Shown piece by piece: positions 42,684 through 44,987 of a stretch of 45,980 nucleotides of DNA. Source of the DNA: a virus (lineage: Duplodnaviria; Heunggongvirae; Uroviricota; Caudoviricetes); IMG/VR virus record IMGVR_UViG_2529292882_000016, one strand, 5' to 3'. The position numbers were made by a program, and so were the translations under genes. Every line of letters begins with the position of its first letter. Positions within the stretch are counted from its first letter, which is position 1. Under the pieces are notes generated by a model. That model saw only the letters and a list, made by a program, of their open reading frames with translations. It was not told where the DNA came from and did not search any database.

Positions 42684-44987
42684 CTATTTTAAATCAGCCT
42701 TTGCGGCTCGAATATCTGCGTTTTTTGCTGAGTATTCCCATTCGTCAGCGATTCTAAATAGCATTGCAGAAGTACGGACGCAGTGGGGCATTGAATTTGC
42801 CCATTCTCGGTACTGCTCAGCTAATATCCTTTCTTGGTTTCCACCTTCGTAACGCATACGAGCAAATACCCCCCTTTTATTGTACCTACCAATTTGTATA
42901 CCTTGCTCTAACTCATCAGAAGATAATATTTCAATGATGTGCCGAATTGCTTCATGTGGCCAGGAATTATCTACTGAGCTATTAGGGGCATGTGCCAGAA
43001 TTTTTCCTATTACATGATCAGTGATTTCTTGGCGATGATGCAATTTTGCTAAATGGCGTACATTCTCACACCAATCTTCAAGTTTATCTTGATCAATTTC
43101 ATTGTCTATCTGCCCTGGTAGTATTCGTAATTTTTCAAGTAATCTGTATATAGAAGTAGCTCTTTTAACTTCCAACTCCGATGGTTCTGTTTGTTCATCT
43201 TCGTCACTACGATATACAATACATATTGCTTCTATAAAAACCTCTGGCTTTTTCATCATTAGACGATGCAGGATAAGTGGCTCATCGCTATCCGGAAAAC
43301 AAGGCAAGTAGGTCATTTCTTTAAATGCCAAATCTGTTTCAGAAACATCGTTACGTTGTTTGAGTTCATCAAAAACTTTTTTTACATAGTACGATAGCAT
43401 TGTATCAAATTGGATATCCTGGCTATTTATTTCTTTAACGACTATATCTAGAAGATATAAAAGTGTTGTAGATGGAATCTCAGAAAGGCGTTGATTTGCT
43501 GATATAATAGCAGCAAGACCCCGGCCCCTTTCTATATATTTATCCATAAGAACAAATAAATCCGAAGTTTTACCCATCATTGCAATGGGTTGTTTTTGCA
43601 ACCAATATTTTTCGTTGATGTTATCTTCAAACCCTTCAATAATGCTCCATATCTCTTGTGAGTCTCTTAACGATGCTAAGATTTTCCCAGCCCTATCAGG
43701 GGTAATTTTAAACTGTTTAAAATACACTTTTATTTTATTAAGCCATTCAGCACCAAAGCATTCAACACCATATTGCATTAACAACCCACAAACTTCATCA
43801 ATATTTTTTTTGTTGTTAATAAGCATTACAAACAAATCATTTAATTTTTCTTCATCCAACGAGAGTGCTGATATATGCCTTGCTGCAATAAAAACATTAT
43901 TAACTTGTTGAAAAAGGTCTTTCACCCCAGATAAACCTAAAGTAAAGTATATTTCCCTAAGTTTTTCACTTCGCATTTCTTCGACAGAAGAAAAAATTCC
44001 GCCAGCATTTTCAATTGACTCTTCAATATCAGAATCCCAATCATTGAAAATCCATAAACTGGCTCTAACCATGTCAATTGGTTTATAATTATCAAGTATT
44101 TTCGCTATTTTTTCCATAGACTCAAATTTAAATGCCCAGTTCGCATCTGAATATTTTTTATGGCGAGAATACTCATGACGCAAAGCCTCCAATACGATGA
44201 ACTGATCCTCTTCAGTTTGTTGAGAAAGGCAAAGTTCAAGATGAGAAAGTGTTTCATCTATTGCATTCTCAGGGAATGAGCTTAAATGAGAGATTAGGAT
44301 TTCCCATCTTGTTGGGAGTATACCTGCAAGTTTAATTGCTTCTTGGATAATAAAGATTTGCCCCTCCCAAACAACGCCCCACGTTAGTTTTTCTACATCT
44401 TTATCCGACTCTCTGAACTTCATTTTTTGGTTTTGATCAGAGGTATCATGGGAGCGAGGAAGGAGATTTTGTAACAAACTCCACCCAATACTAGGAACAA
44501 TAGTGATAATTTTTTTTATAATTGCATTTCTAACTTTTACTGGTGCCCATGTATTAGGAGACCATGCCAGAAAAATGGTTCTTAAACTATTAAGAGGGCG
44601 ATCTGAGTAAGTTCCTCCGGGATCTATTACAGCGAGTTTTGCAAGACAGATTGCAGCGCGTAATAGATATGTTTGTTCCCAAGCCAAGGCTTCCAATGCC
44701 CATTTTAATCCATGATAATGACTTCGAGGAGTTAACAGCCCTTTATCTTCATTGAATATTGGAGCAATCATTTCCCCATTGCCCTTAAGCAATTGCTCAA
44801 GGGCATCAAGGAAAGGGCCAGGGGCAGCTTCTGCCAGCAGCGGAAGTTGATCTCGCAAACTAACAAATAGTCGATGGTCGTTAGCAAGTCCCGGAATACT
44901 CTGAACTATTTTGTTAACAAAATCTTGGGGTGTCATACCAGTAACCCGGAATTCGGCCTGTTCATGTAATATGATCTTACCCAGCAA
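42684..44987 (-). CDS. Large alpha-helical protein of unknown function (up to 767 aa), AT-rich island cargo; 5' end abuts or is truncated by IS3
   Basis: Long uninterrupted ORF in AT-rich DNA; no P-loop or nuclease motif recognised; the TTG start at 44987 lies inside the IS3 left end (first ATG at 44936). Confidence 0.55.
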   Translation of the reverse strand: MLGKIILHEQAEFRVTGMTPQDFVNKIVQSIPGLANDHRLFVSLRDQLPLLAEAAPGPFLDALEQLLKGNGEMIAPIFNEDKGLLTPRSHYHGLKWALEALAWEQTYLLRAAICLAKLAVIDPGGTYSDRPLNSLRTIFLAWSPNTWAPVKVRNAIIKKIITIVPSIGWSLLQNLLPRSHDTSDQNQKMKFRESDKDVEKLTWGVVWEGQIFIIQEAIKLAGILPTRWEILISHLSSFPENAIDETLSHLELCLSQQTEEDQFIVLEALRHEYSRHKKYSDANWAFKFESMEKIAKILDNYKPIDMVRASLWIFNDWDSDIEESIENAGGIFSSVEEMRSEKLREIYFTLGLSGVKDLFQQVNNVFIAARHISALSLDEEKLNDLFVMLINNKKNIDEVCGLLMQYGVECFGAEWLNKIKVYFKQFKITPDRAGKILASLRDSQEIWSIIEGFEDNINEKYWLQKQPIAMMGKTSDLFVLMDKYIERGRGLAAIISANQRLSEIPSTTLLYLLDIVVKEINSQDIQFDTMLSYYVKKVFDELKQRNDVSETDLAFKEMTYLPCFPDSDEPLILHRLMMKKPEVFIEAICIVYRSDEDEQTEPSELEVKRATSIYRLLEKLRILPGQIDNEIDQDKLEDWCENVRHLAKLHHRQEITDHVIGKILAHAPNSSVDNSWPHEAIRHIIEILSSDELEQGIQIGRYNKRGVFARMRYEGGNQERILAEQYREWANSMPHCVRTSAMLFRIADEWEYSAKNADIRAAKADLK

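Follow-up and report, generated by a model that had tools for sequence, protein, structure and literature searches.

Among the bacterial receptors of the Avs type, Avs4 is a sensor of the phage portal protein with a nuclease-STAND-TPR build, and Gao and colleagues are said to have found in 2022 that it is an active ATPase forming ATP-dependent tetramers. The STAND NTPase Avs8A (EcAvs8) is a sensor of the major capsid protein of HK97 fold, and the Avs8AB system by itself protects MG1655 (bioRxiv 10.1101/2025.07.02.662641). The Avs8A and Avs8B of strain ECOR07 have accessions WP_000963924.1 and WP_000443183.1, and in a transposon screen for mutants that escape the toxicity of gpE, Avs8A was hit but the gene described below never was (bioRxiv 10.1101/2025.07.02.662641). 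KpAvs8 is reported to be a protein of the Avs8 type in which the nucleotide-binding residues are naturally missing (bioRxiv 10.64898/2026.01.04.697583).

The window, by which we mean the whole stretch of 45,980 nucleotides that was analysed (IMG/VR virus record IMGVR_UViG_2529292882_000016), contains near its end a long minus-strand reading frame between a P4-type integrase gene and an IS3 element. The features of this region are the following:

41072..41098, plus strand: ssrA 3'-end att core CGGGTTCAACTCCCGCCAGCTCCACCA, second copy (first copy at 1034-1060)
41304..42545, plus strand: P4-type tyrosine integrase, 413 aa (from the ORF list; domains seen on the E. coli 55989 counterpart)
42626..42649, no single strand: 10-bp hairpin between the convergent integrase gene and ORF, terminator-like on both strands
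42684..44987, minus strand: 767-codon ORF with TTG start, as listed by the ORF program
42684..44971, minus strand: remnant of the 1,248-aa gene, CDS nt 1460-3747, from codon 487 to the stop, helical-repeat sensor region only
44190..44192, minus strand: codon 747, TGG to TTG (W747L) relative to the intact E. coli 55989 allele
44934..44936, minus strand: first native in-frame ATG, RefSeq start of the 750-aa 'hypothetical protein' WP_000188801.1
44972..44987, minus strand: left-end 16 nt of IS3, read from the sequence, supplying the TTG and the first five fused codons (M-L-G-K-I)
44972..45980, plus strand: IS3 element, with left inverted repeat and orfA at 45028-45336, running past the end of the window

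The initial annotation had described an AT-rich minus-strand frame of 767 codons directly after the integrase, starting at a TTG 16 bp inside the left end of IS3. Both statements hold: the GC content of the ORF is 0.33-0.42, compared with 0.45-0.50 for the integrase gene and about 0.53-0.58 for IS3, and on the minus strand the TTG occupies 44987-44985, 16 nt inside the element. In the minus-strand reading, the left end of IS3 (TGATCTTACCCAGCAATAGTGG...) lies at 44972; the terminal inverted repeat (TGATCTTACCCAGC... from 44972) and orfA were recognised at the junction by reading the sequence, and strains GE3 and IBS28 have the same junction, annotated there as 'IS3-like element IS3 family transposase'. 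In the minus-strand frame, a TGA is found at 45020-45018 and the next ATG at 44936. Where the remnant has the five fused codons, the intact protein reads ...LLHMAILHEQAEF. No catalytic motif had been recognised in the frame, in agreement with the searches of the 767-aa fragment, which have no hits in Pfam and PADLOC and nothing above noise in NCBIfam; the alpha-helical repeat protein that had been suggested is also what the AlphaFold2 (AF2) model predicts, being all-helical over residues ~470-1190 of the intact protein, to which the surviving part belongs.

An intact counterpart is present in E. coli 55989, directly after ssrA and the integrase: a 3,747-bp gene encoding 1,248 aa (WP_000871158.1, 'hypothetical protein'; L001:12139-15885). 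The integrase counterpart in this strain contains Arm-DNA-bind_3, Phage_int_M and Phage_integrase domains. Relative to this gene, the window retains codons 487-1248 and has lost the first 486, which bears out the suspected 5' truncation by IS3. Comparison of the ssrA/intA locus with genomes lacking IS3, as had been proposed, thus recovered the intact gene in 55989 and, as its neighbours, Avs8AB. The proposed ssrA/intA setting is found as such in 55989, where ssrA, integrase and gene are contiguous; in the window, a phiP27-like prophage of ~40 kb (window 1061-41071) separates ssrA and integrase; it sits in the 3' end of ssrA, upstream of the integrase island, which is older. The prophage, covered to 66-72% at 95-97% identity, carries an integrase of its own (39740-40939), and no Shiga-toxin A or B motif was found in its six-frame translation. 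The second copy of the 27-nt att core is the boundary between prophage and island, being the right edge of the one and the left edge of the other.

The native 2,288 nt in the window differ from the 55989 gene at two positions, of which one is synonymous and the other, at window 44191, causes the W747L substitution. Tryptophan 747 is invariant in an alignment of 24 sequences and at least 90% conserved in one of 89, and leucine is found there only in the window, not in L001, L002 or L109. By megablast, the stretch is matched at ≥99% identity in 188 of 5,426 complete E. coli genomes, while a query with the whole gene detects parts of it in 204 E. coli genomes. Of 60 genomes sampled at even intervals, 16 have the gene in one piece, and in the rest it is either interrupted by IS3 or partly deleted. 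Two IS3 positions recur, at CDS nt ~194 and ~1459 (query breaks 3554 and 2289), the break at 2289 being that of the window. That many E. coli genomes have IS3 at these two places in the AT-rich gene may reflect shared ancestry or a preferred insertion site. Strain GE3 has two IS3 copies, dividing the gene into three pieces, and strain IBS28 has lost all sequence past the IS3 copy, among it the 5' part of the gene and the adjacent defence genes Avs8AB. Some genomes, IBS28 being an example, lack the whole segment between this IS3 and the next copy of the IS3 family, and Avs8AB with it. The exact arrangement of the window was not found in any genome of the E. coli collection.

Because about three quarters of the E. 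coli carriers in the 60-genome sample have a broken copy, the gene is dispensable. The window ORF is best regarded as a non-functional pseudogene remnant comprising the 3' 61% of an IS3-split gene, and it would be unable to perform the function proposed below because head and nucleotide-binding oligomerization module (NOD) are absent in the window. For the window alone, the result is an ordinary pseudogene. An untranslated pseudogene remnant had been named beforehand as one of the findings that would refute the initial reading, and this applies in part, as the window holds a remnant and not a working gene.

The intact protein is predicted to contain a head (residues ~35-165), a STAND-type NOD (residues ~190-420) and a helical-repeat sensor (residues ~430-1248). 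The structure considered here is an AF2 prediction for an 83%-identical orthologue, cut at residue 1200; a first AF2 run, on residues 1-560 with 10 sequences, gave a pLDDT of 51 and was discarded. In the model, the head has a PD-(D/E)xK restriction-endonuclease fold, and residues ~190-420 form the NOD, with a nucleotide-binding-domain fold, a helical domain and a winged helix. The rear part matches helical-repeat proteins, and the three-part build of effector, NOD and repeat sensor is present in the predicted model. In Foldseek searches, Avs4 with portal (E 1.3e-5) and human SAMD9 (E 2.2e-5) rank above generic HEAT-repeat proteins. The intact protein has no useful match in Pfam, PADLOC or NCBIfam, and sequence search of the PDB found no relative.

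At the P-loop position, a Walker A motif GxxxxGK[ST] is found in none of 322 family members, with six chance matches elsewhere in the proteins, while 119 of 120 Avs8A proteins contain GLSGVGKT. The corresponding beta1-loop-alpha1 position is occupied by an acidic loop, AADSPDEV in E. coli ('ADSPDE'), of which E226 is at least 90% conserved. The lack of a nucleotide site is thus a stable trait of the family rather than the result of recent decay. Among 109 sequences, the head has three invariant residues, D54, G55 and K84, and E74 is at least 90% conserved. Where (D/E/Q)xK is expected, the protein has E74-F-G76, with a near-invariant glycine at the position of the triad lysine; K84, located in the next helix, may replace this lysine. 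Nuclease activity of the predicted head is plausible, albeit uncertain because the motif is non-canonical, with Gly76 in place of lysine. The best-conserved motif of the sensor is located at the extreme C-terminus, N1184-x-R1186-G1187 ... E-G1196-G1197-x-Q-E1200 (window about 42828-42878), and is invariant or nearly so down to 23% identity; the AF2 model is unreliable at residues 1184-1200, the query having ended at residue 1200.

In intact islands, the divergent neighbour of the gene is a 1,283-aa protein that matches the PADLOC model PD-Lambda-4_A over its entire length with 2,531 bits, and the next gene is PD-Lambda-4_B; the 55989 proteins have the same accessions as the ECOR07 pair, WP_000963924.1 for Avs8A and WP_000443183.1 for Avs8B. 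The expectation that the cargo slot beside a P4-type integrase would harbour defence genes is thereby confirmed for the intact islands, and the gene itself is Avs-like in build. It is transcribed divergently from Avs8AB, at a distance of ~467 bp, in E. coli, Shigella, Intestinirhabdus and Klebsiella aerogenes. In Klebsiella aerogenes, the same integrase heads the cassette of integrase, 1,248-aa gene, Avs8A and Avs8B at another chromosomal site, with identities of 83% for the 1,248-aa protein and 94% for Avs8A. Avs8B has 303 aa in Klebsiella aerogenes (L110:11898-12809) and in the PADLOC model, while 55989 (L001:20250-21162) has ORFs of 248 and 51 aa there; the 248-aa form (WP_000443183.1) is the experimental ECOR07 Avs8B. 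The Avs8A of Salmonella is 68% identical and has as its neighbour a 452-aa protein, which was considered as a homologue of the 1,248-aa protein and rejected as unrelated. Many E. coli strains have kept Avs8AB while the neighbouring gene is broken by IS3. No Avs8A-like gene was found in ~60 non-enterobacterial loci with distant homologues, and in the clustering of neighbours the Avs8B-like cluster is confined to enterobacterial loci. The link with Avs8 is co-residence rather than an operon, and, from the lack of an Avs8A-like gene or any recurring neighbour near distant homologues, the gene behaves as stand-alone cargo of mobile or defence islands.

The remote-homology and structure searches that had been recommended reveal, besides the Avs4 and SAMD9 matches, a remote kinship with Avs8A. 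With deeper alignments at the domain level, hhalign relates the head to the Mrr domain of Avs8A (77.7%, E 1.9e-5, 156 columns), and the sensors of the two proteins align with 89% (E 2.3e-6) over 688 colinear columns; the full-length comparison gives 14.7% and the central regions have no detectable sequence similarity (hhalign 0.1%). Head and sensor are therefore probable remote homologues of those of Avs8A, judging by these profile comparisons. A colinear paralogy with Avs8A, suspected by eye, is weakly supported over the full length and gained support at the domain level only, the centre never having aligned by sequence. In line with the domain-level homology, an Avs8A HMM built here matches several divergent family members weakly. 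The intact E. coli protein has no PADLOC PD-Lambda-4_A match, and divergent members have weak partial ones (E 1.6e-5 and 0.008).

Homologues have a near-constant length of about 1,250 aa and are found, all without a name, in Burkholderia, Paraburkholderia, Cupriavidus, Polynucleobacter, Stenotrophomonas, Methylococcaceae, Oleiagrimonas, Bacteroidales and many metagenomes; family fragments are also recorded from Klebsiella pneumoniae. A profile of the sensor module, made from the window ORF and 17 diverse homologues, retrieves in an exhaustive HMMER search 7,472 representative clusters (at 50% identity) at E ≤ 1e-3 and 4,357 at E ≤ 1e-30, from 1.84 billion searched, while a single-protein scan of genome contigs found close relatives only. 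Database names are 'hypothetical', occasionally 'addiction module' and, for some fragments, 'XRE family transcriptional regulator'. RefSeq lists similar pieces in ~150 E. coli genomes as hypothetical proteins and some N-terminal pieces as XRE regulators, a name that on the E. coli fragments looks like annotation carry-over. Among the papers searched, none cites family accessions and none with an experiment on this protein was found.

In some members the head is swapped. A paralogous subfamily of 1,182 aa, present also in eight E. coli genomes (L104:3884-7432; also L102, L103, L105, L106 and L108), has only residues ~353-1240, the sensor module, in common with the 1,248-aa protein; its head is another one and contains a canonical D...QxK nuclease motif, while Walker A is lacking and PADLOC and Pfam give no match. 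One member of 931 aa (L107) is apparently headless. Variant N-termini (P0427, 1,498 aa; P0278/P0279; L083/L101; P0431) comprise a PNP_UDP_1 head or an extra XRE, MerR-type or winged HTH; the PNP_UDP_1 phosphorylase-family head is found in one member and the additional N-terminal HTH in several. Metagenome contig L047 contains two diverged, convergent paralogues ~2.3 kb apart, at 9947-13738 (plus strand, 1,263 aa) and 16063-20058 (minus strand, 1,331 aa), the latter being the best PADLOC PD-Lambda-4_A match of any family member (E 1.6e-5). In the survey of neighbours, family members with their variable heads are located in defence islands and mobile elements: distant homologues lie near DruE, R-M I, II and IIG, DrmA, PtuA, PbeA, AbiE, GmrSD and integrases, and also near many housekeeping genes, with no recurring neighbour across about 60 loci. 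Two Polynucleobacter neighbours (1,211 and 305 aa), suspected from their size to be Avs8A and Avs8B, are not called by PADLOC.

Taken together, the ORF is probably the dead 3' 61% of a gene for an Avs-like anti-phage sensor without Walker A and with a predicted nuclease head, a reading to which we give somewhat better than even credence. Against it count the missing sequence similarity between the central region and the Avs8A NTPase, the low full-length figure, the non-canonical nuclease motif, the lack of matches in PADLOC, Pfam and NCBIfam, the many housekeeping neighbours, the frequent breakage of the gene in E. coli and a structure that is a prediction for a truncated orthologue. What the tool results show is the truncation, a family lacking Walker A, remote homology to Avs8A, the island context and, in the predicted model, the domain folds; anti-phage function, trigger, nuclease activity and nucleotide independence are what we infer by analogy. 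By analogy with Avs4 and Avs8A, the sensor would bind a conserved phage protein, binding would lead to oligomerisation through the NOD module without nucleotide, and oligomerisation would activate the nuclease head, stopping the infection. Possible, though we put it forward only tentatively, is the wider view that the family makes up a large branch, so far unrecognised, of immune receptors derived from STAND proteins, which would sense phage proteins without nucleotide binding and fire a non-canonical nuclease; the addition that in Enterobacteriaceae it is paired with the adjacent Avs8A, like plant paired NLRs, is less likely.

A non-immune role, as a DNA-binding regulator, in addiction or maintenance, or as a nuclease against competing elements, seems unlikely. 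It would suit the N-terminal XRE or MerR-type HTH of some members, the names 'addiction module' and 'XRE family transcriptional regulator' in databases, the frequent location beside integrases and the lack of a PADLOC match. However, the effector-NOD-repeat build is typical of immune receptors, with Avs4, Avs5, CED-4 and SAMD9 as nearest structures, swappable heads including PNP_UDP_1 suit the immune reading, and the database names are apparently automatic, none of the papers searched citing the accessions. If the role is immune, the protein might act as the partner of Avs8A, in a head-to-head receptor pair of the kind known from plant NLRs, in which one member has a degenerate P-loop, and would then modulate or broaden Avs8 sensing. 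The two genes are indeed divergent, ~467 bp apart in four genera and on one mobile integrase cassette, their heads and sensors are remotely homologous, and only Avs8A has Walker motifs; yet cloned Avs8AB protects MG1655 without the neighbour and the gpE-toxicity screen yielded Avs8A only. As no Avs8A-like gene turned up in the ~60 non-enterobacterial loci, Salmonella has Avs8A beside the unrelated 452-aa gene and Avs8AB is kept in many E. coli with the IS3-broken gene, we regard such a partnership as decidedly improbable.

Concerning the window itself, it is scarcely credible that a start supplied by IS3 or lying within the ORF still allows expression of a sensor-only protein, for instance a decoy that binds a phage protein. 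Charlier and colleagues are said to have reported IS3 in 1982 as a mobile promoter, the 767-codon frame is open with only the two nucleotide changes, RefSeq annotates a 750-aa CDS and an apparently headless member exists in the family. The open frame is unremarkable, though, because the remnant is near-identical to intact alleles, promoter-like signals upstream of the ORF are at chance level (10 seen, 8.0 expected), and the W747L substitution affects a conserved tryptophan.

If the intact protein is the Avs-like anti-phage sensor proposed here, it would add to the pattern-recognition receptors of bacteria a widespread family, whose sensor module is matched by 4,357 clusters at E ≤ 1e-30 and which PADLOC v2, Pfam and NCBIfam miss. 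It would then provide a natural test of whether a NOD module switches on without nucleotide and, if it does, NOD-mediated assembly in bacterial immunity would need no NTP switch. The separately annotated pieces, that is the 750-aa remnant, the fragments in ~150 genomes and the N-termini with XRE names, are fragments of one gene. The large, unnamed, P-loop-less STAND-like family of the intact gene merits an experimental test.

Compared with known systems, the protein resembles Avs8A in size (1,248 versus 1,283 aa) and in the order of its domains, endonuclease-fold head, NOD and helical-repeat sensor, and in Enterobacteriaceae the two lie side by side in the same integrase island. They differ in the P-loop, where Avs8A has GLSGVGKT and the family no Walker A, in the nuclease motif, which is a canonical D...QAK in Avs8A and D54...E74-F-G76...K84 here, and in gene organisation, Avs8AB being a two-gene operon whereas the 1,248-aa gene is without an Avs8B-like partner outside this island. 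In the PD-(D/E)xK domains of FokI, MspJI, AspBHI and Mrr type the lysine of (D/E)xK is present, while Gly76 takes its place here. Avs4 (SeAvs4, PDB 8dgf) has ~8-10% sequence identity and its sensor repeats are different. KpAvs8, compared by description only, may belong to the same family or, just as well, be a degenerate close relative of EcAvs8; the available part of its text does not contain the ADSPDE motif (bioRxiv 10.64898/2026.01.04.697583). As described there, it shares with this family the absence of nucleotide-binding residues and sets a precedent for an Avs8-type receptor of this kind.
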